A stretch of 64,000 nt of DNA, from assembly GCF_035944575.1 (NCBI RefSeq), contig NZ_DASZBA010000191.1:172-64171 (forward strand). Direction: 5' to 3'. The notes below the pieces were generated by a model. It ran no database searches and was not told the origin of the DNA. It worked only from the letters and a program-made list of their open reading frames with translations. The stretch is from Noviherbaspirillum sp. Its GTDB lineage: Bacteria > Pseudomonadota > Gammaproteobacteria > Burkholderiales > Burkholderiaceae_D. Of this stretch, positions 2,046 to 60,370 are shown piece by piece. The translations under genes and the position numbers were made by a program. The stretch's first letter is position 1, and each line of letters begins with the position of its first letter.

Positions 2046-2271
2046 GTTCCTTCCCACTCGTAGGGGATGAAGCCGGGGTTTCGCAACGCATGCGTTGCCC
2101 CGGCTGAATCGAAGCCGCTTGCAAGCGGCGACGTGGAAAAGTTGTAAGCGGACCGGCTCCTTCCCCCTGTCAGGGGGAAGGCTGGAATGGGGGTAGTGGG
2201 ATCGAGTAAACGCATGCAGTCGATCAACCTTCACACCCCCACCCTAGCCCTCCCCCTAAAAGGGGGAGGGG
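2046..2271 (-). repeat. Composite palindromic repeat, full copy (modules E-D-C-B-A as read on the plus strand)
   Basis: Hairpins lie at 2072-2104 (GCAACGCATGCGTTGC core), 2114-2129 (GCCGCTTGCAAGCGGC), 2159-2181 (CCTTCCCCC/GGGGGAAGG), about 2193-2235 (degenerate long IR) and 2248-2270 (CCCTCCCCC/GGGGGAGGG). Confidence 0.8.
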
Positions 2272-2323
2272 ACCTGTTCTTTATGGCGCGAACCAGCGCG
2301 GACTACATCGAAAAGGCAACCCT

Positions 2324-7963: not shown

Positions 7964-8009
7964 GGGTTACGCCATCCGGGCGATATATGGGCGCGGAACA
8001 GTTGCATGT

Positions 8010-8531
8010 TCAACTCGACGGAAACGCATCGATTTCCGCCGCGGCCGCACCGGCAAGCGCCGCAGGTTGAATGCCCATGGCTTCCAGTGCACGCAAGGCG
8101 ACGCCGTGACGGGCGGCGGTGGCAGCCAGCAGGACGTGCGCGCCCAGCAACGGCTTGCCTGCATCCTCTTTTTTCCGCGCGGCCAACTGTTGCATCAGTG
8201 CTTGCGCTGACGGTTGCGCATGGTAGACACCCTTACCCGCAGGGATGGGAGCGGCAGCGCTCCCTGCCGCATCGAGCGACACTTCGATGCCAATATTGCG
8301 CAACGCATCGTCGTATTGCCGGGCGATCGCCGCACGATAACCGTCCGGGTCGCTCTGCATGCGCTCGAACGCCTTGCGTGCCGTTCCGTCCGGCAGCGCC
8401 AGTGCGGCAAGAACAAAATGTTCCGCGCCCGGTTCCTTCCGGCCGTCCGCGTTCGCATATGATTCGGCGTTTTGGCAAAGTACCTTGATGGTATGCATGT
8501 CCTGAAAACGCTGTCTGATTCTGGTGAACAT
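8010..8531 (-). CDS. Clp N-terminal (Clp_R) repeat domain protein
   Basis: Start set at the internal ATG (MFTRIRQRF). It has two helical repeats with EHFVLAAL and AHVLLAAT, resembling the ClpA/B N-domain. Confidence 0.55.
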   Translation of the reverse strand: MFTRIRQRFQDMHTIKVLCQNAESYANADGRKEPGAEHFVLAALALPDGTARKAFERMQSDPDGYRAAIARQYDDALRNIGIEVSLDAAGSAAAPIPAGKGVYHAQPSAQALMQQLAARKKEDAGKPLLGAHVLLAATAARHGVALRALEAMGIQPAALAGAAAAEIDAFPSS

Positions 8532-8544
8532 GGAAGCTCCCGGT

Positions 8545-8763
8545 TTATGAATGCGGTTTTGAAAGCGTGCCGGCCAGGCGCTTATGTGCCGCCTGCTTCG
8601 ATACGCCAAGCGCTTCGGCAATCTGCGACCACGACCAGCCCTGATCCAGCGCAGCTTCCACGGCCTTGCGCTCCAGCTTGTCCGCCATCAGGCGCAATGC
8701 CACGACGGCGGCCAGTGCTTCGGCGGGATCGTCGGGAGAAGGAAGCGATTTGGGATTCATCAT
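8545..8763 (-). CDS. Small helix-turn-helix protein
   Basis: Start set at MMNPK. The C-terminal WSWSQIAEALGVSKQAAHKRL is a classic HTH. It lies 13 nt upstream of the Clp_N gene on the same strand. Confidence 0.55.
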   Translation of the reverse strand: MMNPKSLPSPDDPAEALAAVVALRLMADKLERKAVEAALDQGWSWSQIAEALGVSKQAAHKRLAGTLSKPHS

Positions 8764-8874
8764 GCGCCAATGATAGTTGACGCAGATTTTAATTGTCAAC
8801 TGATGTTGACGGCCATGCCCAACGATGGTGTGCCGGGATGAACGACATCGCCCCGATCCGCTCATCCCTGGCCG

Positions 8875-9921
8875 TTACTTCACGCCGTCCAGAAGATGCC
8901 GTTTGAAAAAGGCGGTGATCTGTTCGTTGATTTTCGGAACAATCGCGTTCCTGTCGAAATCCGGAGGATCGCCGACGAGTGCCTCGACCGCAACGGAACG
9001 GCCGGGCGGAAGGGGGCTTAGCAGTGCACCGTGACCACCGGTCGGCAGATCCGCAAGATGTTCACACGACCGGCATGCCTGCAGTACGGCGTCGCTGTGA
9101 AATCGCGGGGTCAGCCACTTGTCTTTCCGCGCCGAGATGATCGCCAATGCCGGCCGCGGGTTCTTCAGGGAGTCAGGATCGAAATCGACGGCGAAGGGCA
9201 CGCCGGCAACTATCGCAGTGATGCGGGGATCGCTATGTTCGTACCACGAAGGGTCATTGAACTTCATGTTGTTCACGTTACGGACGAGTGCGAGTTTGAT
9301 GCCGTCAAATAGGCTTCCGGTAAGAAACATGAAGGGCCCGGCACAGGTATGAAAGTCTTCCTCGATGTATTCGTTGCAATGGCGCCGGAGCTGCGAAGGA
9401 GACCATTTGCCTCCGGCAAGCGTCAGCGCGGTATGGCCACCGGCGGACATGCCGAACATACCGATACGGGCAAAGTCGAGAGCCGGACCGAATGCCGGCT
9501 CGGCGCGCACCCTGTCGATCGCGCGCGTGACTTCCGTCGGCCGCCTGCGCCAGCTTGGCGGCCCCGGTTCGCTATTGTCCTTGTAGTTGTCGCCGAAATG
9601 TTCCGGCAGCGCCACGACAAAACCCGCGTTGACCAGCGACTTCGCGAGATCGAAATGCACCCACGGCGACGCGGGCGACCCATGCGATATCACGATGAGA
9701 CGCCGGTTGACCGCTCCCAGCGGCGCATCCACCGCGACATTCATGGTAAACGCGCCCCTGCGTTCGACGGCCGGCTCCGATGCGGTCGGATAGAAAATCG
9801 TGACCGGACCGGATTCCGCATCCCCCTCCAGCTCGGCAAGCCCGACGGCTGCTCCGGCCGGGCCGGCACATGCAAGCAACAGGATAATGTAAGCGAGACG
9901 AAGTGCGCGATGCATGATCAA
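8875..9921 (-). CDS. Secreted alpha/beta hydrolase (dienelactone hydrolase / PAF-acetylhydrolase-like)
   Basis: 348-aa ORF with a signal peptide (LLLACAGPAGA) and the nucleophile elbow GMSAGGH. Confidence 0.7.
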   Translation of the reverse strand: MIMHRALRLAYIILLLACAGPAGAAVGLAELEGDAESGPVTIFYPTASEPAVERRGAFTMNVAVDAPLGAVNRRLIVISHGSPASPWVHFDLAKSLVNAGFVVALPEHFGDNYKDNSEPGPPSWRRRPTEVTRAIDRVRAEPAFGPALDFARIGMFGMSAGGHTALTLAGGKWSPSQLRRHCNEYIEEDFHTCAGPFMFLTGSLFDGIKLALVRNVNNMKFNDPSWYEHSDPRITAIVAGVPFAVDFDPDSLKNPRPALAIISARKDKWLTPRFHSDAVLQACRSCEHLADLPTGGHGALLSPLPPGRSVAVEALVGDPPDFDRNAIVPKINEQITAFFKRHLLDGVK

Positions 9922-9969
9922 GGGAAGATAGATAAGGAAGCAATCCGATATGTCGCCACCATGGAAACC

Positions 9970-10389
9970 TCAGTCAACGCTGGCAGGACCCGGCGGGTTC
10001 TTGGCGAACCACTCCACGATCATGCCCATGTTGTCTTCGAAACCGCCGGGTGTGGAAATGTTCAGCACCCCGGCCCGGGCGCCGGTCCGGTTCTGGAAAT
10101 CATGTGTCGCCCCCGCCGGCGCCAGTACGAAGGAACCTTTCGGGCAATCGATCCATGCGCCGTCGACGAAAAAGCTCATCGTGCCCTCAAGCACGTAGAA
10201 GACATCATCTTCGTCATGCGAATGCGCGCCCGGCCCCTGGGTATTTGGTTCAAGCCACCACTCGGAGATGGAATATTTGCGATTCGACTCAGCGCCGTCG
10301 GCTTTGAACAAGGCGGACATGCCGCCCATCCGGTAGGGCCGGCCTTCACCGGGACGAAGAACGATGGGACGGCGGGTTGTCTCTTCCAT
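9970..10389 (-). CDS. Cupin domain protein
   Basis: 139-aa ORF with GPGAHSHDEDDVFYVLEGT ... PAGATHDF cupin motifs. Confidence 0.75.
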   Translation of the reverse strand: MEETTRRPIVLRPGEGRPYRMGGMSALFKADGAESNRKYSISEWWLEPNTQGPGAHSHDEDDVFYVLEGTMSFFVDGAWIDCPKGSFVLAPAGATHDFQNRTGARAGVLNISTPGGFEDNMGMIVEWFAKNPPGPASVD

Positions 10390-10515
10390 GGCGCTTCCTG
10401 TTATCGTGAAACGGCTGAGGTGGCATGAGCTGCCAAATGGCAGATTACCATGGTGCGGGACTACATCAGGCAGGCATGGCGATTCAGGCAGGAAACCGCG
10501 ATGAGGGCATAAAAA

Positions 10516-10875
10516 TCAATGATCCGGTATCGGCATACCCTGCGTACGCAGGAACGTCAGCTTGTCCCAATAGCCGCGTTGAAAAACGATCTGGTCATTC
10601 TGAATGTGAAAGAACCCGCATCCCCGCAGCCCGAGCGGATCGCGCCATTCAAGAATTGCCCATTCACCGTCTTCAAAAATGTTCTCGACGATGCATACCA
10701 TCTTCGCAGCGGCGAACCCGTCGGCGAACATCTTCCGAATCGCGTCTCTGCCTTCGACGGGTGATTCGGCTACCTGGTGGTTCACCGCATGTTCGTTGTA
10801 GAACGATGCGAGCGCATCGACGTCCGCTTTGTTGAAGGCATCCACCCATTGTTTGACGAGGTCTTTTGGTTTCAT
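10516..10875 (-). CDS. NTF2/SnoaL-like protein
   Basis: Start set at the internal ATG (MKPKDLVKQWVDAFNKADVDAL). The sequence upstream of it in the same frame is AT-rich islet DNA. Confidence 0.75.
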   Translation of the reverse strand: MKPKDLVKQWVDAFNKADVDALASFYNEHAVNHQVAESPVEGRDAIRKMFADGFAAAKMVCIVENIFEDGEWAILEWRDPLGLRGCGFFHIQNDQIVFQRGYWDKLTFLRTQGMPIPDH

Positions 10876-10989
10876 GGTGAATGTGTTTGTCGTGGTCCTG
10901 ACAGGCAATGTCTGACCGGACGCCGGCCTATAAGATGATATTGATCGAACTAAATTTAATCTACTCTGACGCTTATATTTTGACCTGTT

Positions 10990-11265
10990 GAGGTTACAGG
11001 TCAGATGTGCTGAGGTGCGAATGTGCTGCTGCAAGACTTGGCCCCGGTTACTGCTGTGCTCAGGACCAACCTGCCCAATTTGGTGCCCACGACGATATCC
11101 CCTCGCGGACGAACTCAGGCATTTTCTGTAACTCGTTGCGGCTTTCAGTTGCCTTGCCTAAATGCTTCTCAGCCATGATTCGTTCCCATCCGGCTCCACA
11201 AGTTTTTGTTCTTGAAGCTCATAGCTTTATCCTCTGCTTGTCACCCGTGAGTACCCGACCTTCAT
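10990..11265 (-). pseudogene. Serine recombinase (resolvase/invertase) N-terminal catalytic domain relic
   Basis: Hand translation of the minus strand across three frames gives MKVGYSRVTSRG*SYELQEQKL, then ERIMAEKHLGKATESRNELQKMPEFVREG, then GDIVVGTKLGRLVLS. Compare the Hin/Tn3 pattern IGYxRVSTxxQxxxLQ ... RIFxDKxSGK ... GDxLVVWKLDRLGRS. The relic has a stop at the conserved Q, at least 2 frameshifts, mutated catalytic residues, and is truncated after about 90 codons. Confidence 0.7.
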
Positions 11266-11564
11266 GTGCCCTTTGTTCTCAAAATTCTAAGATGATGTGA
11301 AACTTTAATATGAGACGATTTTTAAGACGATGCAAAAGGGAGTTTCATGATGTCTCGCGACTTGTAAGTTATAAGACATGCTCAGAAGTCCGATCATTAA
11401 AACCGACCACAGCGAAATAGCTAAATGCTGTAATTTCTGACTTAGAGCCAATACTTGCCCATTGGACATTCTGATTCGGATCTCGTAGACTTCATAAGCA
11501 AATCGCTACAAGTCTACCTAACGCGTAATTGCGTTGCTACCTATCCCTCTCTGAGTCACTCTAG

Positions 11565-12524
11565 ATGTCGACAACGAAGCTAACAGAACAACAACTTGCC
11601 ACTATTCGACCGCTTGAAGCTGCACTCCAGAAGGCGGTTCAACAGGTGGAACCGGAGAGGGCAATTGAGATTGTCACAAAAATACAAGCTGAGTTTCCCA
11701 ACGATCGGAGCCACCACCGTTTGCTTCGCGCAAAACTTTGGGCATTTGAAGCAAATTTAGAAGCGAATCGAATTATGTACGCCGAAACTGGCTTTATCGG
11801 GATTCGGAAGCTATCGGAACCTAATACTCGACTGTACTTGGAAGCAAGTTCCTTGCTTGCAGTATGTAAGTTGCGCCAGAAACGTGTTCCTGAAGCAAAA
11901 GACCTAATTACTGAAGTTATTTCGAAAATAAACAACATTGCCTCAGAGCGAACTCGAAGACAATTTCAAAAGCGGTTGATTGAGCGTATAGAAGAGGAAT
12001 GCATCCTGACAGAGTTAATCGGCACAGGAGATGCAACGTTAGATGTTAATGAAGTTGAGGCTAATGCTATATTTCTTTTGCAACGGAACACCGACGACGA
12101 AATTCTAAAACTAATTGGCGATAGCGTTCCAGCAGCTAGCATACAGTTGCTAAATGATGTTAGAACGCACTCGGTTAAGCAGCTTCCACCATCTGACCGC
12201 AAACTTCTTCCTCCACCCGAAAAGGCCGAAGAACCTAGGCAAATTGGGCGTACGACCTTTGCAATCCTGAAGCGTATCGCGTGGAAGACTTTCTGCAAGC
12301 CATCAAGTCCAATCTTCAAACTTTGGTCGAATCGTGTGCCAAAAGTCTTCAATGAAGGGTATTTTTCTGCAGCCGTTGTCACGACCTTGGGCGATTTTCG
12401 GATTGGAATCCCAATGATCGCGAGTGGCCTTGCTGCACTGGTTATGAAATACTCTGCGGAAGAGTTTTGCGAGTTGGCGAAACCGAAAGGACTGATGATC
12501 CCTAGGAACGAGCCTGAGACTTAG
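11565..12524 (+). CDS. Hypothetical protein (orphan, helical N-terminal region, hydrophobic C-terminal segment)
   Basis: 319-aa ORF in AT-rich DNA, so a long ORF is unlikely by chance. I recognise no family motif. Confidence 0.65.
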   Translation: MSTTKLTEQQLATIRPLEAALQKAVQQVEPERAIEIVTKIQAEFPNDRSHHRLLRAKLWAFEANLEANRIMYAETGFIGIRKLSEPNTRLYLEASSLLAVCKLRQKRVPEAKDLITEVISKINNIASERTRRQFQKRLIERIEEECILTELIGTGDATLDVNEVEANAIFLLQRNTDDEILKLIGDSVPAASIQLLNDVRTHSVKQLPPSDRKLLPPPEKAEEPRQIGRTTFAILKRIAWKTFCKPSSPIFKLWSNRVPKVFNEGYFSAAVVTTLGDFRIGIPMIASGLAALVMKYSAEEFCELAKPKGLMIPRNEPET

Positions 12525-12697
12525 AACATTTGACTCCATTCTTGCAAGGAAGGTCCTTTCCAATCGAGCGGGCAAAGGGTATGGCGGAAAGGGCGCTTCG
12601 TTTGAAGGAGAAACGTGCACGCACAACTTGACGAATTTCGTTGTAAGGTATGGTGCGAGAATCGGGTTATTGGCTGCCGATTCCCGTGCTTAAGCGA

Positions 12698-14110
12698 TCA
12701 ATCTGCTGCTGATTCAGGTTGCGGTGCTAAGTAGCCAGCCTTGTTGGCACTCAACAGTGCATCTAGCTCAGCATCCGAGAATGTCCCCTGTGCTCGAAGC
12801 TTTTGAATAAACGTTCTGTAACTTGTTGCACCAGGTATGTCTGCATTCGTCTCCACTGGAAGTCTAATAATGCGTTCAAAGTCTTCTTTAATTAAATATT
12901 CGAAAATTGGGAAGATCACCTTTCCCATTATTTCATTGACGCGATTGAAAGAATAAGCGCCGCCCAAAAAGTGAATGGCACGGTCCTTTGCAAGTATTCC
13001 TAATCCATGCTCTATTCCTAAAACAAGCTCGTCGAAAGTTAGTTGAGCAACACGTTTCGCGACTGCTTCAGCTAACGCTTCTAATCGGTTAAGGGACGCG
13101 AGACCCGGCACGACTTGTTCAGGCGGTGCACAATTGATAAAGCTTAGCACCTTACCTTTAGCATCCTCGTCGAGCAGGTTCCAACCAATTCGAACATGGG
13201 TAAGTATCGCTACGGCAAACATCAGACCAGCGTCCGGAACGTCCCTAATAGCTTTATTAAGTTGCTGCTTTAGCCGCCTTTCGACCTTATCAGGAAACAT
13301 TTCGAATACCCCCTTCAGGGCGGACATCACCGATAACTCTCCGTAAAAGTTATCGCCCTCCGTCACAAATCCAAAAACAATCATGTCAACGAAATTGCTG
13401 ACTAGAGCTTCGCTAGGGCGGGCAAGGGATGAGGCCCGAAATTGGACGATTACCTTATCGGTTTCATTAGGGAAGAACTGAGAGAGTATGAGAGCTCTCA
13501 ACTTTGCCAATGCTGCCTTTCCCTGAACTGGAGGCTCGGAAAGCACATGAATTACCGCGTTGCGCAGGTGTAGCCGCGCATGTTCTGCACTTGGACGGTA
13601 AGGTTCACCGATTCGTTGAAATGAGGGATGCGCGCACCGGTGTCTATCATCGCGTAATCGTAACAAGTCGGTAAACTGATGAGGATCGAGCATTTGTAGC
13701 TCGTTCCGACAAGTTTCGAGAACCTTTCTCTCGAACTCCAAGGCACCTTTCAGACCCTGATCATTGCCTGCCTCAATCTGAGCAATGTATCGTTCGTACT
13801 GAAGTTCAATGTCTTTGGCTTTACCCTCACCGGATGCGGCGAGCTCACGGATTTTGTCAATCAAGTCAAAAACAACGGCTATCCACGTACTTACAATCGC
13901 AGCACGATAAGCGCCTCCCCGATAACAAAGCACGGCTTCTGCTATATGTTCCTTTGAGCGTTCCGATCTACAGCGGAGGGCTAAGGTCTCAATGTCTGCA
14001 AGACTTTCTGCCACGTTTGTTTCTCCAAGTAAAGGATTGAGTGACAATAGAAGTGTAGGCGTAGACGAGTGCGCGCCTAATAGGTCACCCAATGTGTTGA
14101 CTAAACTCAT
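12698..14110 (-). CDS. Hypothetical protein with N-terminal HEPN-like region (two Rx4H motifs)
   Basis: 470-aa ORF in AT-rich DNA. Residues 56-86 read IAEAVLCYRGGAYRAAIVSTWIAVVFDLIDK. RHRCAH lies at 13628-13645 and RNAVIH at 13547-13564. Coding status is confident, function is not. Confidence 0.7.
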   Translation of the reverse strand: MSLVNTLGDLLGAHSSTPTLLLSLNPLLGETNVAESLADIETLALRCRSERSKEHIAEAVLCYRGGAYRAAIVSTWIAVVFDLIDKIRELAASGEGKAKDIELQYERYIAQIEAGNDQGLKGALEFERKVLETCRNELQMLDPHQFTDLLRLRDDRHRCAHPSFQRIGEPYRPSAEHARLHLRNAVIHVLSEPPVQGKAALAKLRALILSQFFPNETDKVIVQFRASSLARPSEALVSNFVDMIVFGFVTEGDNFYGELSVMSALKGVFEMFPDKVERRLKQQLNKAIRDVPDAGLMFAVAILTHVRIGWNLLDEDAKGKVLSFINCAPPEQVVPGLASLNRLEALAEAVAKRVAQLTFDELVLGIEHGLGILAKDRAIHFLGGAYSFNRVNEIMGKVIFPIFEYLIKEDFERIIRLPVETNADIPGATSYRTFIQKLRAQGTFSDAELDALLSANKAGYLAPQPESAAD

Positions 14111-14457
14111 TACTTTACTTGGATTCTTGTTCGTGAAGCAAGGCTAGCCGCCCTTAGCTGCATTGAGGAGGAAAAATCTCCGAACAAGTTTTGAGATTGA
14201 TGACTGCTTAGCTGAGACATGCGACGTTTGCTGACTCGACGCCATTAGACTATGTAAATGCCTAAGATATTCCTCGAGTAAGCGATGGTTTTGTCTATGC
14301 GAGGTAAAGATGAGTGATCAAGAACGTGTATGTCGAAAGACCATTGTGACGGACGCTTTGGAGCGCATGGTGTGTTGCACCATCACTTCCACTTATAACA
14401 TCAATGGTGGCCTAACTCCTTGAGTTCTAAGGGGCGGTTCAATCCCCGCCATATCCC

Positions 14458-16032
14458 TCAAGCCACATTCTTCAACCGCTTCACCCCCGCCTGCGGCAAG
14501 TCCACCATCATCGGCTCCCCCGGCACCGTACATCCCGTCGCGCAGCATTTCCCCGGCTGCTTGTTCGCCGTGATCGGCCGTCGCGGATCGTCTACCAGCC
14601 CGCGGTCCATCAACCGCTCCACCAGTTCCACCTTGTTCCCGATCGGGTAGTTGCGGTAGATCTCCTGCTTCATCGCCGCCGGTGAGCCGCCGCCGTGCAG
14701 GCTGATGACCGAGTACCAGCCGCCCTGATAGGACGCGGTGAGGTCTTCGATGAAACGGGCCGTTTGTATGCGCTGCTCGTACGGCACATTCGGATTGGCG
14801 CGCAGGACGTCGGCGAGGTTGGCCGCCGTTTCAGGATTGTGGTCTTCGTCGGGGCCGGGGAGGGTAACAATCAGGCCGCCCGATACATAGTGGGCGATGC
14901 GATGCATGTCGTAGATCTGCGTGGCCAGCAGCAGCTTGCCGATGTTGGAGAACACCGCGTCCGGCACGAAGGTGTTCGAGGCCTCGTCAACCTTTGCATA
15001 CACCGATGCGGCCACGCCGCAGGCATAGAAGCCTTCGGTGATCTTGATGAGTTCCACCATCTGTTCGCGCAAGTGAGTTTCCTTGCCAGGATCGAAGCCG
15101 TTCGCTTCGCACATCAATGCGCCGGCGCCGATGAGCAGGTCGCCGAAGCCGGCGCGTGCGCCGATGCAGCTGTGACGGTGGTGGGTCGCGTAGTTGTAGG
15201 TCATGTAGGACGAGTGTTCCCATTCGCCGGCGTAAAACACCCGTTCCCACGGCACGAAGACGCGGTCGAAGACCAGCACGCCGGTGGATTGGCCGAACTT
15301 GTTGGAGAACAGCGCCGATTTTTCTCCCGGGCGTCCGGCGGGGCGGGCGATGATGGTCAGCCCGGGGACATCGCAGGGCACCGCGCAGCAGACCGCGAAG
15401 TCGGCATCCGCCTCGCTCATGTTGCGGCAGGGCATGACGAGAAATTCATGCATGTAGGGCGCACCAGTGACGATGGCCTTGGTGCCGGACAGGACGATGC
15501 CTTTCGCATTGCGCTCGACGATGTGCACATACGAATCCGGATTGGCCTGCTCGTGCGGACGGCGGCTGCGGTCGCCTTTCGCATCGGTCATCGCAATGCC
15601 GACCGAGAGGTCGCGGTCCTGGAAGTCGTGCAGGTAGTTGAGGAAATGCTCGCCGTAGCGAGTGCCCTTGTCGGCGTCGATGCGATGCGTGGCCTGGTAG
15701 ATCGCGTTGAAGGCATCGTGCGCAAGATAGCGCTGCGCGCAGCCGGTTTCCTGGCACAGCAGGCGAACCGCTTCCAGCTTGTTGAGCAGGTCACCGGTAC
15801 TGGTGTTGATGTGCAGCATGCGGTTGACCTGCTTGCCGGAGGTGTGCTGTGTCGCCAGCATCAGCGGCGCGAAGTCTTCCTTTAATGCGTAGTCGTAGGT
15901 GACGCCGAGCGCATTGATGCCCGGTGCGAATGCCGGTTCGTCCGCCACCGATTCGATAAGGCGGCCATCCAGATAGACTTTCGGCTTGTATTGCCGCAGC
16001 GACTCGCGGTATTCGGCGGATGACATCAGCAT
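14458..16032 (-). CDS. HpaB/AbfD-family protein (4-hydroxyphenylacetate 3-hydroxylase / 4-hydroxybutyryl-CoA dehydratase family)
   Basis: Start set at the internal ATG, preceded by AAGGAG at 16039-16044. Family-typical stretches include GIAMTDAKGDRS, GTKAIVTGAPY and ATHHRHSCIGARAG. Confidence 0.75.
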   Translation of the reverse strand: MLMSSAEYRESLRQYKPKVYLDGRLIESVADEPAFAPGINALGVTYDYALKEDFAPLMLATQHTSGKQVNRMLHINTSTGDLLNKLEAVRLLCQETGCAQRYLAHDAFNAIYQATHRIDADKGTRYGEHFLNYLHDFQDRDLSVGIAMTDAKGDRSRRPHEQANPDSYVHIVERNAKGIVLSGTKAIVTGAPYMHEFLVMPCRNMSEADADFAVCCAVPCDVPGLTIIARPAGRPGEKSALFSNKFGQSTGVLVFDRVFVPWERVFYAGEWEHSSYMTYNYATHHRHSCIGARAGFGDLLIGAGALMCEANGFDPGKETHLREQMVELIKITEGFYACGVAASVYAKVDEASNTFVPDAVFSNIGKLLLATQIYDMHRIAHYVSGGLIVTLPGPDEDHNPETAANLADVLRANPNVPYEQRIQTARFIEDLTASYQGGWYSVISLHGGGSPAAMKQEIYRNYPIGNKVELVERLMDRGLVDDPRRPITANKQPGKCCATGCTVPGEPMMVDLPQAGVKRLKNVA

Positions 16033-16070
16033 GGCGATCTCCTTGAATTGAAAACGGTCTATCATGAATG

Positions 16071-16083
16071 TGAACTAAGTTCA
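16071..16083. promoter_or_regulatory. Candidate operator palindrome TGAACTAAGTTCA
   Basis: Perfect 13-nt palindrome in the 102-bp divergent spacer between the HpaB/AbfD-like gene and the TetR gene. Confidence 0.4.
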
Positions 16084-16096
16084 TTTTTGCGTCAAG

Positions 16097-16112
16097 CATG
16101 CATGGATGCATG
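16097..16112. promoter_or_regulatory. Candidate operator palindrome CATGCATGGATGCATG
   Basis: Perfect 16-nt palindrome in the same divergent spacer, 23 nt upstream of the TetR start. Confidence 0.4.
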
Positions 16113-16134
16113 TGCATCGTGCTACATTTTCCCC

Positions 16135-16797
16135 ATGAAAAAACAGACCAGTACGGTAAAGGAAAGTAATGAGGTGATGGAGGCTGTCGAGCCGCGCCGG
16201 GTGCGCCTGCGCGCCGTCAAGGACATGAAGCGGCAGATGATTCTCGACGCCGCGCGGCGGGTGTTCGAGAAGGAAGGTTTGCTTGGCGCCAACATGCGGG
16301 CGATTGCCAACGAGGCCGGCTATACCGCCAGCGCGCTGTACAACCATTACGCCAGCAAGGAAGAGATCTACGGCGACCTGTTGTCGCAATCGCTCGACAG
16401 GCTGAACGACGCGGTCGAGGCGGCATCCGGCAATGGGCAGCCCGCGCACCGCATCAAGCGCCAGGCGCTGGCCTTCTATGATTTCTACCTGAATTATCCG
16501 CGCGAGCTCGACCTCGGCTTTTACCTGTTCCAGGGCATGAAGCCGCTCGGCCTCACGCCGGAACTCAATGAGCAACTGAACCAGCGCCTGCGCCAGGCGC
16601 TGGGCGGCGTGGAGAGCGGCTTGGTCGCGCTCGGCTGCAGCGCCGCCGTCGCAGAACGTGAAACCACGGCGCTGTTCGGCCACTGCGTCGGCCTGCTGCT
16701 GCTCACGCATACCGGCCGTATCCGCATGTTCGGCCAGGACGGCCGCGCATTGTTTTCCCTCTATATCGGCAGAATGATCCAGCAGGCGACCTCATGA
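16135..16797 (+). CDS. TetR/AcrR family transcriptional regulator
   Basis: Start set at the internal ATG (MKKQTS). The HTH is ANMRAIANEAGYTASALYNHYASKEEIY. Confidence 0.85.
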   Translation: MKKQTSTVKESNEVMEAVEPRRVRLRAVKDMKRQMILDAARRVFEKEGLLGANMRAIANEAGYTASALYNHYASKEEIYGDLLSQSLDRLNDAVEAASGNGQPAHRIKRQALAFYDFYLNYPRELDLGFYLFQGMKPLGLTPELNEQLNQRLRQALGGVESGLVALGCSAAVAERETTALFGHCVGLLLLTHTGRIRMFGQDGRALFSLYIGRMIQQATS

Positions 16798-17336
16798 GCA
16801 CACTATGCGATGCGCAGCAATCCACCCTTGTCCTGATCGATCTGCAGGAACGGTTGATGCCGGCCATTCATGACAATGAAACCGTGGTCGCCAATGCGCG
16901 CAGGCTGGCGCAGGCGGCAAAGCTGCTGGAGGTGCCGGTGATCGGCACGGCGCAATATCCGGCGGGGCTCGGGCCCAACGTCGCCGACCTGCATGCGCTG
17001 TGCGAGCGAGTCATCGACAAGAATGACTTTGATGCCTGCGGCGCACCGGCATTCATTGCCGCACTGGATGCGACGGACCGCCCGGATTTGATCGTGACAG
17101 GCTGCGAAGCGCATGTCTGCGTATTGCAAACCGTGCTCGGCCTGCTGGGGCGCGGTCGCCGCGTGCGGCTGGTGGTGGATGCGATCGGATCGCGCCTGCC
17201 GTTGAACAAGACGATTGCGATCGAGCGGGCGAAGGCGGCGGGTGCGGAGTTGGTGACGACGGAGATGGTGTTGTTTGAGTGGATGAGGAGTAGTGAACAT
17301 CCGCGGTTCAAGGAAATGCTGCGGTTGATCAAGTGA
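16794..17336 (+). CDS. Isochorismatase-family cysteine hydrolase
   Basis: 180-aa ORF with LVLIDLQ and VTGCEAHVCVLQT motifs. It overlaps the TetR stop by 4 nt. Confidence 0.8.
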   Translation: MSTLCDAQQSTLVLIDLQERLMPAIHDNETVVANARRLAQAAKLLEVPVIGTAQYPAGLGPNVADLHALCERVIDKNDFDACGAPAFIAALDATDRPDLIVTGCEAHVCVLQTVLGLLGRGRRVRLVVDAIGSRLPLNKTIAIERAKAAGAELVTTEMVLFEWMRSSEHPRFKEMLRLIK

Positions 17337-17449
17337 ACCGGGTTTGCTTTGCATGGCTGGTGTTGGACAGTCGCCCGATTGCAACCCTAGAGTAATAAGG
17401 TCCAACATAATACTGGCAACATATTGCAGCAAATTATTCTGCTGCGTAT

Positions 17450-17477
17450 CTCCTTCGCCCTATCAGGGGTAGGGAGC
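17450..17477. repeat. Solo degenerate C-type hairpin
   Basis: CTCCTTCGCCCTATCAGGGGTAGGGAG. Confidence 0.45.
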
Positions 17478-17521
17478 CGCGCAGTGAAAGCTTAAAGCGC
17501 CGTGTGTATCAGGAGACTTCC

Positions 17522-18082
17522 ATGAAATCATTTATCGCCACCACCCTCATCGCCGCCACGCTTTTTCCCGCCGCATCAAGCGCCACCTCAACCTCTTACG
17601 CTGGCCAGGAAACCCGCGACATCAAATCCCTGTCGCAGGAAGACATCAACGGTTACCTGGCCGGCAAGGGCATGGGCTTTGCCAAGGCAGCCGAACTCAA
17701 CGGCTATCCCGGCCCCATGCATGTCCTCGAACTCGCATCCGAGCTGCAACTGACGCCGGAGCAGCAGGCAAAGACAAAGCAGCTATTCGATGCGATGCAG
17801 GTAAAGGCCAGCATGCTGGGACGGGAACTGGTGGCTGCGGAACAGAAGCTGGACCGGCTTTTCGCCGGCCGGTCGGCCAATACGGAATTGCTGGACAACT
17901 CACTCAAGGAGATTGGCGCCTTGCAAGCGAAGGTGCGCGGTGCGCATCTGGAGGCCCATCTCACGCAGGCAGAGATCCTCACTGCAGAGCAGACCGCCCG
18001 CTATCTCACGCTGCGCGGTTACGGCAAGCAGGCAGCCACTGGTGTCGACCACGGTAGTCACGGCGGCCGGCACAAGCATTGA
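17522..18082 (+). CDS. Periplasmic Spy/CpxP-like (LTXXQ) protein
   Basis: Start set at the ATG after AGGAGA. It has a signal peptide and two LTXXQ motifs (LTPEQ, LTAEQ). Confidence 0.65.
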   Translation: MKSFIATTLIAATLFPAASSATSTSYAGQETRDIKSLSQEDINGYLAGKGMGFAKAAELNGYPGPMHVLELASELQLTPEQQAKTKQLFDAMQVKASMLGRELVAAEQKLDRLFAGRSANTELLDNSLKEIGALQAKVRGAHLEAHLTQAEILTAEQTARYLTLRGYGKQAATGVDHGSHGGRHKH

Positions 18083-18097
18083 CCCCGGCGGCACTCA

Positions 18098-18463
18098 TCA
18101 AGGCAGTCCCACCACGATGCATTCCTTGGGATACGTAATCGCATCGTCTACGTTGTACTGCAGCGCCTGGTTCGGCGCGATCACGGTCTCCCATCCAACC
18201 ACACCGCGCCGGCGCTTCCACGTACCCAGCGTCGGCGGCATTTTCCCGGACGTCTGAACCCTGATCTCTTCCGACGTGCTCACAGGTGACGCTTCCAGCA
18301 CCAGCAGGCCGACCGGCTTCTTGTAGAAACTGGTGATCGTGTACACATCCGTCTCATCCTTGCCCAGGTTATGCAACGTTGCCAATACGGCGTCCCTGAT
18401 GATGCTGGTTACCCTTGTCTGCGGCGCGACGATGAATCTCCCTGGCTTGCCTGCCCTCCTCAT
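18098..18463 (-). CDS. Hypothetical protein
   Basis: 121-aa ORF with non-degenerate composition. I recognise no motif. Confidence 0.45.
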   Translation of the reverse strand: MRRAGKPGRFIVAPQTRVTSIIRDAVLATLHNLGKDETDVYTITSFYKKPVGLLVLEASPVSTSEEIRVQTSGKMPPTLGTWKRRRGVVGWETVIAPNQALQYNVDDAITYPKECIVVGLP

Positions 18464-18711
18464 AAGCTGTTCGCCGTTTTAAGCCAGTTAACAAGTTTTT
18501 CCACGGCGTCCGGCAGAGACGAAATAGCGCCACCGTCAACGGAAATAATGTGTTGTTCAGTCGAAGACCGGACCGTTCGCAACATTGTTCAATAGCCTGT
18601 CATGGAACTGACGCATCGCTGCTGCCACACATTGCCTGTGGCGATAGCGCCACTTCTGCTTGGCCAACCCTTAACGCCAACGGAAATGGCCCGCCAGACA
18701 AGGACAATCAC

Positions 18712-20349
18712 ATGCGATCCACAACAGCCCTGAACACAGCGGATACGCGCCCCGACAAGGTGAGCGCCGCTCATCTCCTGCAAACCGCCAATGCATATCG
18801 TGATGCCGGCGAGCCGGCACTGGCGGAACAGCGCTATCGCGAGGCGCTCGACAGCGCTGCGCACAGCGTGGAAGCGCACTATCGCCTTGCCCTTCTACTC
18901 CAGAACCAGGCGCGTGCCGGCGAGGCATTGCCGCTGATCGATGCCGCCGTCGTTGCGCAACCCGGCAACCCGGCCCTGCATCTTACCCGGGCGATGATTC
19001 TTGCAAGCCTCGGCAAGCATCTGGAGGCGCTGGAAAGCATGGCTGCCGGCTGTCGCATCCATCCCGCCAATGCGGACACGCTTTATAACGTCGGCCTCCT
19101 GTATGCGGAGCTATGCTGTCCGGCCCAGGTCGAAGTCGTCGCCCGCCGTCTGCTTGCACAACGACCCGACTGGCCGGCTGCGCACTACTTGCTCGTGCGC
19201 GCGTTGACCGCGCTCTACGGCGATCCAGTGGAGCTGGACGCGCGCTATGCCCATCTCGTAAAAACCGATCCGCTGAACCCGGCGTTGCGTTTCGCCCGCG
19301 GCCTCCAGCAGCTCCGTACCGGCGATTACCGCGCCGGCTGGGAAGCGCAAGAATGGCGCTGGGAGATCGAGCCGGTAAAGTCGTCACGCTTCCTCTGCGC
19401 ACAGCCGCGCTGGGCCGGCGGTTCGCTGGAGGGTAGAAAGTTGCTCGTAACCGGCGAACAGGGTTTCGGCGACGTGCTGCAATTCGTCCGCTATTTGCCG
19501 CTACTCATCAGCCAGGGGGCGCAGGTCACGCTTCGCCTCGATGCCAACCGGGCGTCGCTGGCGCGGTTGCTGCGAACGATTGACGGTCTGAGGGTCATTG
19601 CCGAAGCCACGCCGCTTCCGCCGTTCGACCTGCATTGTCCGCTCGCCAGTCTGCCTTACGTGTTCGACACGACGCCCGATACGATTCCCGCGACGCCGTA
19701 CTTGCATGTCGATGAGGCGGATGTCGCCGCCTGGCGCGCGCGGCTCGTCGGCATGCCGCGGCCATGGACCGGCGTGTGCTGGGCCGGATCGGCGGAGCAC
19801 GACCACAATATCCGCCGTTCACTGCCCCTGTGCACAGGCAGTCGCTACCACGCCGATCGAAGCCTGCGTGAGCAACGCATCGGTGCCGCATCGGCGGTCA
19901 TTGCCAGTGCGTGCGGTCTTGAGGAGCTAAACGCTGCGGCGGTGCGCGACGCCGCTCCTGCGGCGTACACCATGGAACCCCTGTTGCGCAAACTGGACGG
20001 AAGCATCATTTCGCTGCAGATTGGCCCGCATGCGCAGGACTTCGAGGAACTGCCGGCCGGCTTGCGTGCCCGCAGCATCGCGCCGCTTGCGGATACCTGC
20101 GATTTCTACGACACCGCCTGTCTGGTACGGGCGCTCGACCAGGTAATTACCGTCGATACCTCGGTGGCGCATGTCGCCGGCGCAATCGGCCAGCGCGGAC
20201 TGATCATCAAGCCAGCCGCGCCGGAATGGCGATGGATCGAACAGGAAGGAAAACCGGGCAGGTCGGCATGGTATCCGAACCTGGCATTGATGGAACAGCG
20301 GGCCATTGCCGAGTTCCATCCATCCTCCAGGGACTGGGGCGGCAGATGA
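18712..20349 (+). CDS. TPR-repeat protein with C-terminal glycosyltransferase family 9-like domain
   Basis: Start set at the internal ATG (MRSTTALN). TPR-like repeats occupy the N-half. The C-half has GEQGFGDVLQFVRYLPLL and ITVDTSVAHVAGA, as in heptosyltransferase-like folds. Confidence 0.6.
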   Translation: MRSTTALNTADTRPDKVSAAHLLQTANAYRDAGEPALAEQRYREALDSAAHSVEAHYRLALLLQNQARAGEALPLIDAAVVAQPGNPALHLTRAMILASLGKHLEALESMAAGCRIHPANADTLYNVGLLYAELCCPAQVEVVARRLLAQRPDWPAAHYLLVRALTALYGDPVELDARYAHLVKTDPLNPALRFARGLQQLRTGDYRAGWEAQEWRWEIEPVKSSRFLCAQPRWAGGSLEGRKLLVTGEQGFGDVLQFVRYLPLLISQGAQVTLRLDANRASLARLLRTIDGLRVIAEATPLPPFDLHCPLASLPYVFDTTPDTIPATPYLHVDEADVAAWRARLVGMPRPWTGVCWAGSAEHDHNIRRSLPLCTGSRYHADRSLREQRIGAASAVIASACGLEELNAAAVRDAAPAAYTMEPLLRKLDGSIISLQIGPHAQDFEELPAGLRARSIAPLADTCDFYDTACLVRALDQVITVDTSVAHVAGAIGQRGLIIKPAAPEWRWIEQEGKPGRSAWYPNLALMEQRAIAEFHPSSRDWGGR

Positions 20350-32780: not shown

Positions 32781-32980
32781 ACTCCCCCTGTCAGTGGGAG
32801 GGGTGGGCAGTAGGTAGTGAGGTTGAGCAGCCGCATACAGCCGCTCGACCTCGCTACCCCCATCCCGACCTTCCCCCTAAAAGGGGAAAGGAGCTGGTTT
32901 GCTTACAACCTTTCCACGTCGCCGCTGGCAGGCGGCTCCGATTCACGCTGCGCAACGCAGTGCGTTGCGAAACCCTGCGC
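32781..32980 (+). repeat. Composite palindromic repeat, full copy (A-B-C-D-E)
   Basis: B is 32814-32857 (GTAGTGAGGTTGAG...CTCGACCTCGCTAC), C is 32869-32891, the GCTTACAAC linker is 32901-32909, D is 32921-32936, and E is about 32946-32980. Confidence 0.8.
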
Positions 32981-33804: not shown

Positions 33805-33848
33805 GGGGGCAGAACGGGCAAAGTACAGACACAGTTAAATGGCAGGTT

Positions 33849-34042
33849 CCCTTCCCCTTGCAGGGGGAGGGATAGCGTAGTGAGGTTGAGCCACTGCATG
33901 CGATTGCTCGACCTCACTATCCCCATCCGAGCCTTCCCCCTGCAAGGGGAGAGGACCGGTTCGCTTACAACCTTTCCTTCGCCGCTTGCAGGCGGCTCGG
34001 TGAGGACGGCGCAACGCATGCGTTGCGAAACCCCGTCCTCAT
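33849..34042 (+). repeat. Composite palindromic repeat, full copy (A-B-C-D-E); the last hairpin includes the stop codon of the binding-protein gene
   Basis: A is 33849-33871, B is 33877-33920 (14-bp stem), C is 33932-33954, D is 33981-33996, and E is 34001-34042 (outer TGAGGACGG/CCGTCCTCA around the 18-nt palindrome CGCAACGCATGCGTTGCG). Confidence 0.85.
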
Positions 34043-37442: not shown

Positions 37443-37491
37443 GGTTGTTGTCTTTTTACCTTTTCATGCTGCTTTATCCCTCCGCAAGGTT

Positions 37492-37603
37492 CCCTCCCCC
37501 TCGCAGGGGGAGGGCTAGGGTGGGTGTAGTGAGGTCGAGCTACTGCATACGTTGGTTCGACCTCACTACCCCCATCCCAACCTTCCCCCTGAAAGGGGGA
37601 AGG
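37492..37603 (+). repeat. Composite palindromic repeat, short copy (A-B-C only)
   Basis: A is 37492-37514, B is 37526-37569 (perfect 13-bp stem GTAGTGAGGTCGA/TCGACCTCACTAC), and C is 37581-37603. Confidence 0.85.
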
Positions 37604-37648
37604 GGCCTTACAGTGGTGCCAGATTCGTAGTCAATGCATTCACTGCGC

Positions 37649-45735: not shown

Positions 45736-45863
45736 TGGGTGAGGCTAGGGAGTGCGGATGAGTGTCATTCTACTGAGAGTTTGAGATGTGGTTTGCAGTG
45801 GGTCTGGTGAACGCATACTGCTTCTATCCTTACCGTCTCGCTTCCCGATGTAAAGGAAAGGTC

Positions 45864-45905
45864 CCTTCCCCCTTCCAGGGGGAAGGCTAGGATGGGGGTA
45901 GTGAG
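45864..45905 (-). repeat. Partial repeat (C hairpin plus half of B)
   Basis: CCTTCCCCCTTCCAGGGGGAAGG followed by CTAGGATGGGGGTAGTGAG. Confidence 0.7.
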
Positions 45906-56869: not shown

Positions 56870-56957
56870 GTTCTCGCTGGCGCTTTAGTGCGCTTTTTGT
56901 ACTGCATGTGCGAGTGCGAAAAGCACCTGCTACATCAAAACCTGTCGCGGTAGAGTC

Positions 56958-57170
56958 CCCTCCCCCTTACAGGGGGAGGGCTAGGGTAGGGGTAGTGAGG
57001 TTGATTATCTGTATGCAGTAGCTCGACCTCACTACCCCTGTGCGGGCCACCCCATCCCAACCAAAAGGATTGCGCTTACGCGCAATCCTTTCCGCAGGCG
57101 AACGGCATGCCGTTCGAAACCCCTGCTACACCCCCCTGTGAGGGGGAAGGAGCCTGTTTGCTTACAACCT
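56958..57170 (+). repeat. Composite palindromic repeat, mosaic variant (A-B-X-E'-C)
   Basis: A is 56958-56980 and B is 56992-57035. There is an extra 12-bp-stem hairpin at 57064-57091 (AAAGGATTGCGC/GCGCAATCCTTT). The E variant has the 18-nt palindrome CGAACGGCATGCCGTTCG at 57099-57116. A degenerate C and GCTTACAAC follow at 57159-57167. Confidence 0.8.
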
Positions 57171-60266: not shown

Positions 60267-60370
60267 CACTACCCCACCCTACGCCGGGCGCCCCTAACCT
60301 TCCCCCTGAAAATGGGAGGGGACTGGCCCCTTCCCCCTTTCAGGGGGAAGGTTGGGATGGGGGTAGTGAG
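60267..60370. repeat. Two partial repeat copies arranged head-to-head
   Basis: The order is CACTACCCCACCCT, a degenerate hairpin at 60298-60321, a perfect C hairpin at 60329-60351, then GGGATGGGGGTAGTGAG. The outer arms are mutually complementary. Confidence 0.7.

Follow-up and report, generated by a model that had tools for sequence, protein, structure and literature searches.

On the minus strand of the window, i.e., the whole stretch of 64,000 nucleotides of Noviherbaspirillum sp. DNA that was analysed, lies a gene (12698..14014) which, judged by its homology and by analogy to a characterised protein of E. coli, probably encodes an RNase of the DARNA (PD-T7-3) superfamily that acts alone in abortive infection. 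The family to which it belongs is a single gene, without a conserved partner, located in mobile or defence settings. PD-T7-3, first described in 2022 (Vassallo et al., 2022; PMC9519451), was later renamed DARNA (bioRxiv 10.64898/2026.02.22.705581). It was described as an abortive-infection protein that joins an N-terminal HEPN RNase (R117x4H122) to a helical, Pds5-like C-domain, assembles as a dodecamer, binds 'CT'-containing single-stranded DNA (ssDNA), made accessible by phage single-stranded DNA-binding proteins (SSBs), at the tips of its C-domains and, once bound to ssDNA, cuts tRNA anticodon loops (bioRxiv 10.64898/2026.02.22.705581). This ssDNA-activated tRNA cleavage is known for the E. 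coli protein only, and the preprint contains no discussion of homologues (bioRxiv 10.64898/2026.02.22.705581). The initial annotation of the window, made without database searches, had pictured a single gene with an N-terminal HEPN RNase module and a sensor-like C-domain, which holds; its further view that no single-gene system with this layout had been described was mistaken, since PD-T7-3/DARNA has exactly this layout, with solved structures, and neither its second catalytic motif, a red herring, nor its description of the protein as an orphan survives. The gene represents no new kind of system; it adds a divergent member to an RNase family already known as a single-gene system of abortive infection.

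Three names are in circulation for the reference protein: PD-T7-3, DARNA and Dandelion. Its gene was identified as ORF1 of the Z/fun hotspot of the E. coli prophage P2-EC30, because residues F6, N33, K69, R98, R117, H122, K201, K204, E347, F368, D372, Q403 and W406 of ORF1, counted from an internal Met, coincide with the DARNA numbering (bioRxiv 10.64898/2026.02.22.705581). Residues 13-298 of Dandelion, reassembled from printed alignments, are 100% identical to P2-EC30 ORF1 (E. coli prophage Z-region, AJ512676.1), and by this match the PDB entries 9wxf ('Dandelion') and 9wx2 ('Dandelion-hepn') are apparently the DARNA protein; a literature search on 'Dandelion' with HEPN, phage or anti-phage returned nothing relevant. 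The 2003-era GenBank annotation of ORF1 (AJ512676.1 364-1779) begins 16 codons ahead of the Met from which DARNA is numbered, and the chain numbering of the PDB 'Dandelion' equals that of DARNA +5. Residue numbers of the window protein are given throughout in the numbering of the 470-residue open reading frame (ORF) that contains the gene, and its parts are the following:

12698..14014, minus strand: coding sequence, 438 amino acids, GTG start, stop codon 12698-12700 (probable; from homologue starts, an upstream GGAG, the predicted local distance difference test [pLDDT] and a recorded product).
13523..14005, minus strand: HEPN domain, residues 36-196 (from PADLOC, PDB sequence matches, hhalign, and an AlphaFold [AF2] model with Foldseek).
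12701..13522, minus strand: all-alpha solenoid, residues 197-470, putative sensor and equivalent of the ssDNA-binding Pds5-like domain of DARNA (from AF2, Foldseek, hhalign and HMMER).

Homology and predicted fold identify the ~160 N-terminal residues as a HEPN domain. The PADLOC PD-T7-3 model matches residues 39-203 (E=6.1e-22), BLASTP aligns 217 amino acids with DARNA at 25% identity (E=7e-16), and both PDB entries are found with a single sequence as well as with a family profile, namely 9wxf (460 amino acids, 12 chains) at E=4e-12 and 7e-17 and 9wx2 (163 amino acids) at E=1.7e-11 and 3e-15, respectively. Compared alone with the N-domain of the DARNA clade, the N-domain gives an hhalign probability of 99.7% (E=1.9e-26). 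Its AF2 model is all helical (pLDDT 90.9, predicted template modelling [TM] score 0.88), and the best Foldseek matches in the PDB, weak in their E-values, are all HEPN proteins: 2hsb (prob 1.00, target-normalised TM 0.65), 1wol, 1ufb, HepT 7ae6, Csm6 6tug and 4nqf. The minimal HEPN proteins of HEPN-MNT toxin-antitoxin pairs and the stand-alone archaeal ones that head this list (2hsb AF_0298, 1wol ST0689, 1ufb TT1696 and HepT 7ae6; target-normalised TM 0.56-0.65, at Foldseek E ≥ 0.17 and thus not significant) differ from the window protein in being single-domain proteins of ~125-145 amino acids, often accompanied by an MNT antitoxin, whereas there is no MNT gene here. The HEPN-like reading of the N-terminus, first proposed from the letters alone, is thereby borne out by homology to 9wx2 and PD-T7-3/DARNA and by a confident AlphaFold model that matches HEPN proteins. 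Two details of that proposal change: the supposed single opening helix (IAEAV...DLIDK) becomes a helical hairpin in the AlphaFold prediction, with a break at G65-G66 between helices 50-64 and 68-92, and the comparison with DUF4145/Abi-type domains finds no counterpart, given that Pfam-A returned no family for the protein at E ≤ 1. NCBIfam and PHROGs likewise gave no useful match.

Two motifs come into question for catalysis, of which only one is conserved in full across the superfamily:

13628..13645, minus strand: R156-H-R-C-A-H161, catalytic-type HEPN motif, equivalent of DARNA R117x4H122 (from alignment and invariance).
13547..13564, minus strand: R183-N184-x3-H188, of which R-N corresponds to DARNA R144-N145 (from column conservation).

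Both motifs, the second reading R183-N-A-V-I-H188, lie exactly where the initial annotation had placed them, and the peptides that it quoted were located, starting at residues 56, 149 and 181. The protein contains three Rx4H against 0.7 expected in shuffled sequences (P=0.03) and five Rx4-6H against 2.1 expected (P=0.05); this enrichment is only mild, so the bare motifs prove little and conservation is the real test. It was assessed in 49 sequences of the window clade and 28 of the DARNA clade (77 in all). R156 and H161 are invariant in both sets (49/49 and 28/28) and align with the catalytic R117 and H122 of DARNA, and D82, K86, E127, A160 and P162 are also invariant across the superfamily and present here. 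The column of R183 holds R in 46/49 window-clade and 26/28 DARNA-clade sequences and that of N184 holds N in 47/49 and 21/28, respectively. H188, on the other hand, is H in 43/49 of the window clade (otherwise Y, N or Q), and its column is V149 in DARNA itself and G/V/S/T across the DARNA clade. Because H188 is clade-specific and variable, R183-N-x3-H188 was rejected as a second catalytic Rx4H, although the initial annotation had regarded precisely this RNxxxH as the canonical form. Judged by conservation, the real motif is the less canonical-looking R156-H-R-C-A-H161, which had been correctly picked out as a HEPN motif.

The remaining ~270 residues plausibly form a sensor domain, as the initial annotation had suggested; they align with the ssDNA-sensing C-domain of DARNA. 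In the full-length AF2 model (pLDDT 87.6) the C-domain is mostly above 90 and consists of 17 helices, and Foldseek against the PDB matches the model, with weak scores, to HEAT/ARM-type solenoids, including Pds5B, condensin Ycg1 and Scc2. Against the PDB and BFVD the full-length model met only generic alpha-solenoids and ankyrin proteins (E ≥ 0.02), and no model of P2-EC30 ORF1 was returned from BFVD. HEAT/ARM alpha-solenoids (Pds5B 5hdt, condensin Ycg1, Scc2, importin-alpha, AP-2) are therefore of the same fold class as the C-domain, but the likeness is generic (TM 0.15-0.36, E ≥ 0.02, 10-13% identity), with nothing that indicates homology. More specific is the profile comparison of the two clades, in which full-length hhalign pairs residues 40-417 of the window protein collinearly with DARNA 8-397, through 366 columns, at 99.7% probability (E=2.3e-26). 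The C-domains alone align over 155 collinear columns at E=2.2e-4, compared to E 0.03-0.24 for cross-domain controls. The HMMER family-profile match to 9wxf extends to chain residue 298, and two members of the window clade align up to position 386/432 of the PADLOC PD-T7-3 model. On these alignments homology to DARNA over the whole protein is probable, not proven.

The window protein shares with DARNA (a single gene as well, ~440-455 amino acids) an N-terminal HEPN domain (residues 1-159 in DARNA) with the Rx4H at the same aligned position and an R-N in the next helix, a predicted C-terminal alpha-solenoid that aligns collinearly with the Pds5-like domain of DARNA (residues 160-455), an aromatic and a polar residue at the positions of F368/D372, and mobile-element or defence settings. 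The HEPN domains are only 25% identical, and at profile level the identity over the whole protein is ~18%. If the homology extends to function, the HEPN domains would dimerise into a composite active site that is shut in uninfected cells, and the tip of the C-domain would bind an infection-specific cue, the likeliest being ssDNA presented by a phage SSB. Binding of the cue would free the RNase to cut cellular RNA (tRNA anticodon loops in the case of DARNA), upon which translation would stop and the infection would be aborted.

A number of observations weigh against so direct a transfer of the DARNA mechanism, which itself rests on a single preprint. The C-domain-only hhalign probability is just 45%, pairwise BLASTP against DARNA detects no similarity past residue ~250 and none in the C-terminal half, and a Foldseek search of the PDB (entries to 2026-04-08) did not return 9wxf, so that there is no superposition on DARNA. 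The window protein scores 76.4 bits with the PADLOC PD-T7-3 model, over profile positions 5-162 of 432 (37% of the profile), short of a full-length, family-level match; other members of its clade reach 85-103 bits, for the most part from the HEPN domain, while DARNA and relatives at 35-38% identity (including proteins of P. aeruginosa, Myxococcus and Paenibacillus) score 495-560 bits over positions 1-429. From these sequence comparisons the window clade is a clearly separate sister branch of PD-T7-3 proper. Functional residues differ as well; three of the regions concerned are the following:

12935..12949, minus strand: F388-N-R-V-N392, aligned with DARNA F368...D372 (from alignment and column conservation).
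12830..12859, minus strand: clade-specific loop P418-x-E-T-G-A-D424-(L/I)-P-G427, at the place of the second half of the ssDNA pocket in DARNA (N401, Q403, W406, R407, N408).
13757..13771, minus strand: residues 114-118, G-N-D-Q-G, between helices 96-113 and 117-136, putative equivalent of the occluding loop of DARNA (81-85; from MAFFT and AF2 helix boundaries).

In DARNA the 'CT' activator is bound by F368, D372, N402, Q403, Y405, W406 and N408, where F368 stacks on T and D372 hydrogen-bonds C (bioRxiv 10.64898/2026.02.22.705581). The stacking aromatic is kept as F388 (W/F/Y in 48/49), and the cytosine-binding D372 (D in 26/28) is replaced by an invariant N, N392. Past DARNA residue 397, where the alignment comes from MAFFT alone, the clade-invariant pocket residues N401, Q403 and R407 correspond to T421, A423 and G427, and W406 corresponds to P426; P418, D424 and G427 are ≥90% conserved in the window clade, so that T-G-A-D-L-P-G-A stands against N-N-Q-x-Y-W-R-N of DARNA, each conserved in its own clade. 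The basic patch by which DARNA binds RNA (K69, R98, K201 and K204; bioRxiv 10.64898/2026.02.22.705581) aligns with D100, E137, N239 and D242, of which D242 occurs in 48/49 of the window clade in a column that is K/R in 28/28 of the DARNA clade. Of the residues making inter-hexamer contacts in DARNA (F6, N33 and E347; bioRxiv 10.64898/2026.02.22.705581), the first two become A38 and G65 and the third has its equivalent in E367, none of the three positions being conserved within the window clade. Finally, the loop 81-85, which occludes the active site of DARNA (bioRxiv 10.64898/2026.02.22.705581), lies in a region that is longer in the window protein and unlike in sequence, with MAFFT pairing D81/P82/Y83 with N116/D117/Q118.

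These differences suggest an alternative, in which the gene belongs to a functionally distinct sister family that senses something other than 'CT' ssDNA (e.g., a different base motif, RNA, a nucleotide or some phage protein), may cut another class of RNA and perhaps forms no dodecamer. The clear gap in PADLOC score, the exchanged pocket loop, the change of D372 to N392, the charge reversal in the RNA patch (K204 to D242 across the clade and R98 to E137 in the window protein), the unconserved dodecamer interface and the longer occluding-loop equivalent all speak for it. Yet the domain order is the same, the alignment is collinear, an aromatic and an amide/carboxylate residue are conserved as a pair at the same helix position, and residue changes at ~18-25% identity need not alter the class of ligand; this alternative is considered rather unlikely, though far from negligible. 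In assigning the protein to the DARNA superfamily it should be kept in mind that, because it belongs to a separate sister clade, its activator sequence, RNA target and oligomer may differ from those of DARNA.

Other HEPN defence RNases (ApeA, HepS and PD-T4-2; PrrC and RloC; Csm6 and Cas13) resemble the window protein in being single-protein or minimal systems. They are Rx4-6H abortive-infection effectors licensed by an infection cue, and several of them cut tRNA anticodon loops (listed in bioRxiv 10.64898/2026.02.22.705581). They differ from the window protein in their sensors or activators, i.e., cyclic oligoadenylates, guide RNA or restriction-enzyme partners, and none of their PADLOC, Pfam or NCBIfam models matched it.

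The protein had been described as an orphan, which is refuted by 458 homologues at E ≤ 1e-3 in a word-indexed search and by a far larger number of clusters in a profile search. The best homologues are full-length at 45-65% identity, are ~437 amino acids long and carry the annotation 'hypothetical protein'. A family profile built from 49 homologues and run exhaustively against 1.84 billion cluster representatives matched, mostly over the full length, 2,213 clusters of 50% identity at E ≤ 1e-3, 1,637 at E ≤ 1e-10 and 890 at E ≤ 1e-30. In a genome scan homologues were present in Dechloromonas, Sulfuritalea, Cupriavidus, Massilia, Janthinobacterium, Pseudomonas, Alcanivorax and Vreelandella, as well as in one cyanobacterium and in two metagenome-assembled genomes, one from Chlorobiaceae and one from Geopsychrobacteraceae. 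Pfam-A gave nothing for the homologues or for DARNA either. A precomputed match to Pfam PF27235 'AF_1680', often flagged weak, is carried by most close homologues (among P0002-P0120; L001, L005 and L024); the copy of Pfam-A that was searched did not contain PF27235, and P0109, whose precomputed PF27235 match is unmarked, returned nothing from it. Nothing relevant was found in the literature on the name 'AF_1680'.

In this genome the gene sits in a low-GC islet that was acquired horizontally, the extent and second gene of which are:

10879..14455, no strand assigned: low-GC islet of 3.6 kb, GC 0.39-0.51 against ~0.62 in the flanks, holding the HEPN gene and a 319-residue ORF (from GC profiles and blastn).
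11565..12524, plus strand: 319-residue ORF, convergent with the HEPN gene, the only other gene of the islet.

In a blastn comparison with a related genome (L030/L031) 81-89% identity is seen across both flanks (9964-10878 and 14456-17336), and 10879-14455 remains unmatched; with conserved flanks and no counterpart of the interval, the latter is a strain-variable islet. At the corresponding position the related genome carries genes for DUF3185, DUF5670, HTH and Clp_N-like proteins. An HTH and Clp_N-like pair occurs elsewhere in the window, at 8004-8810, therefore the region has been rearranged. The islet is bounded by a SnoaL-like gene and a gene of the 4-HPA-hydroxylase family, and the nearest neighbours (SnoaL-like, cupin, 4-HPA-hydroxylase family and TetR regulator) include no MNT antitoxin. 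Proteins encoded in the flanks fall into clusters of ≥90% identity together with proteins of Noviherbaspirillum and Herbaspirillum. Around the islet no tRNA gene, integrase or meaningful flanking repeats were found, only short repeats at chance level, and an integrative element marked by a tRNA gene or flanking direct repeats was thus rejected. Megablast of 8000-20000 against plasmids gave no match.

Elsewhere in the family, the genes next to homologues include those of integrases, resolvases and transposases, or belong to insertion sequence (IS) elements, to prophages or to a ubiquitin-like defence cluster of the Bil type; they vary by locus and none is conserved. The homologue of Variovorax sp. 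W1I1 (L024/L025 1599-4117) is part of an island bounded by an integrase, with a Bil-like ubiquitin-type cluster (Prok-JAB/ThiF, Multi_ubiq, Prok-E2_E and BubE) 4 kb away; this is likely a defence island. One may ask if the gene serves immunity at all. It might share no more than ancestry with DARNA and encode instead the HEPN toxin of a module for addiction or competition, or a housekeeping enzyme of RNA processing. HEPN domains do occur in toxin-antitoxin and RNA-processing proteins (Anantharaman et al., 2013, cited in PMC9519451), and the islet of the window lies among metabolic genes and not in a defence island. A HEPN-MNT or type III (RNA-antitoxin) system was nevertheless discarded, for there is no adjacent MNT gene or repeat array, and no partner conserved in the homologue loci examined; the region 10500-14700 contains no tandem-repeat array or Rfam match, hence no sign of an RNA antitoxin. 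The patchy distribution, with horizontal transfer across Proteobacteria, cyanobacteria and Chlorobiaceae, and the mobile-element and defence neighbours of the homologues also argue against such an origin, and the related genome that lacks the gene speaks against a housekeeping role. A non-immune function is therefore considered highly improbable, and the assignment as an abortive-infection RNase is retained.

The 319-residue ORF was rejected as a partner of the HEPN gene, being absent from 22/22 homologue loci and having unrelated contexts of its own. Its family is unusually tightly conserved (339 matches, full-length, 67-92% identity) and is found in Nitrotoga, Gallionella, Nitrosomonadales, Burkholderia, Paraburkholderia and gammaproteobacterial metagenome-assembled genomes. 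The ORF shows only a weak TPR_19 match and nothing in PADLOC, PHROGs or NCBIfam. The family is a solo gene in changing contexts: one member stands beside a resolvase, Bro-N and HNH, a second has an IS3 transposase, PAAR and Tae4 alongside with HEPN_Swt1 and DUF5343 near, and a third lies between nadA and housekeeping genes.

The coding sequence itself was revised at its 5′ end, where two further features belong:

14015..14110, minus strand: first 32 codons of the mechanical 470-residue ORF, probably 5′ leader and not protein.
14023..14026, minus strand: GGAG Shine-Dalgarno sequence, 8 nt before the GTG (read from the sequence).

The 470-residue ORF is present at 12698..14110 on the minus strand, as had been stated from the ORF list. 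The N-termini of its homologues, ~437 amino acids being their usual length, align at V33, the GTG at 14014 has a GGAG 8 nt ahead of it, and residues 1-34 have a pLDDT below 50 in the AlphaFold model; for these reasons ATG 14110 is probably not the start, and the gene is probably 12698..14014, of 438 amino acids with a GTG start at 14014. This exact 438-residue sequence is already on record as a called gene product. In the 5′ leader there is a 19-nt inverted repeat, 89% complementary (14024-14042 / 14105-14123, minus strand), whose 3′ arm overlaps the GGAG ribosome-binding site; the fold energy of the leader is -31.4 kcal/mol (z=-2.4 against shuffles), and the repeat could be a translational control hairpin or chance. 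The integrity of the gene bears on a last alternative, namely that it is an inactive relic, either a decaying passenger or a protein that uses its HEPN domain for binding only. Nothing specific favours it beyond an islet without mobility genes and the lack of a sigma-70-like promoter upstream of the gene on the minus strand. Against it stand an intact full-length frame with a good ribosome-binding site, the presence of all superfamily-invariant residues (D82, K86, E127, R156, A160, H161 and P162) and a confident AF2 model, and this explanation is given a very slight chance.

Unconnected with the gene, a G+C-rich element of ~85 nt that is partly palindromic and resembles repetitive extragenic palindromic or miniature inverted-repeat transposable elements (REP/MITE-like) is dispersed over at least seven places of the window (2190-2273, 32782-32886, 33846-33923, 37489-37604, 45861-45905, 56955-57151 and 60328-60370). 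It is also present in the related genome (L030 14631-14823).

With the assignment to the DARNA superfamily, a gene formerly called 'hypothetical', together with its family (several hundred to ~2,000 clusters), would gain a concrete, testable function, that of a single-protein, nucleic-acid-licensed HEPN RNase in phage defence, in a sister clade where the PADLOC PD-T7-3 model recognises little beyond the HEPN domain of most members. More tentatively, there may be a large unnamed sister family of DARNA (up to ~890 clusters of 50% identity at E ≤ 1e-30) that has the same HEPN domain and solenoid but a rewired sensor tip and an acidic RNA-docking patch, and that responds to a different cue and/or cuts a different RNA, possibly as another oligomer; if true, the family would illustrate how trigger and target can both diversify on a single immune scaffold. 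Given its changed ssDNA-binding, RNA-binding and oligomerisation residues, the clade offers a natural comparison for how DARNA-type sensors choose their activators and substrates.

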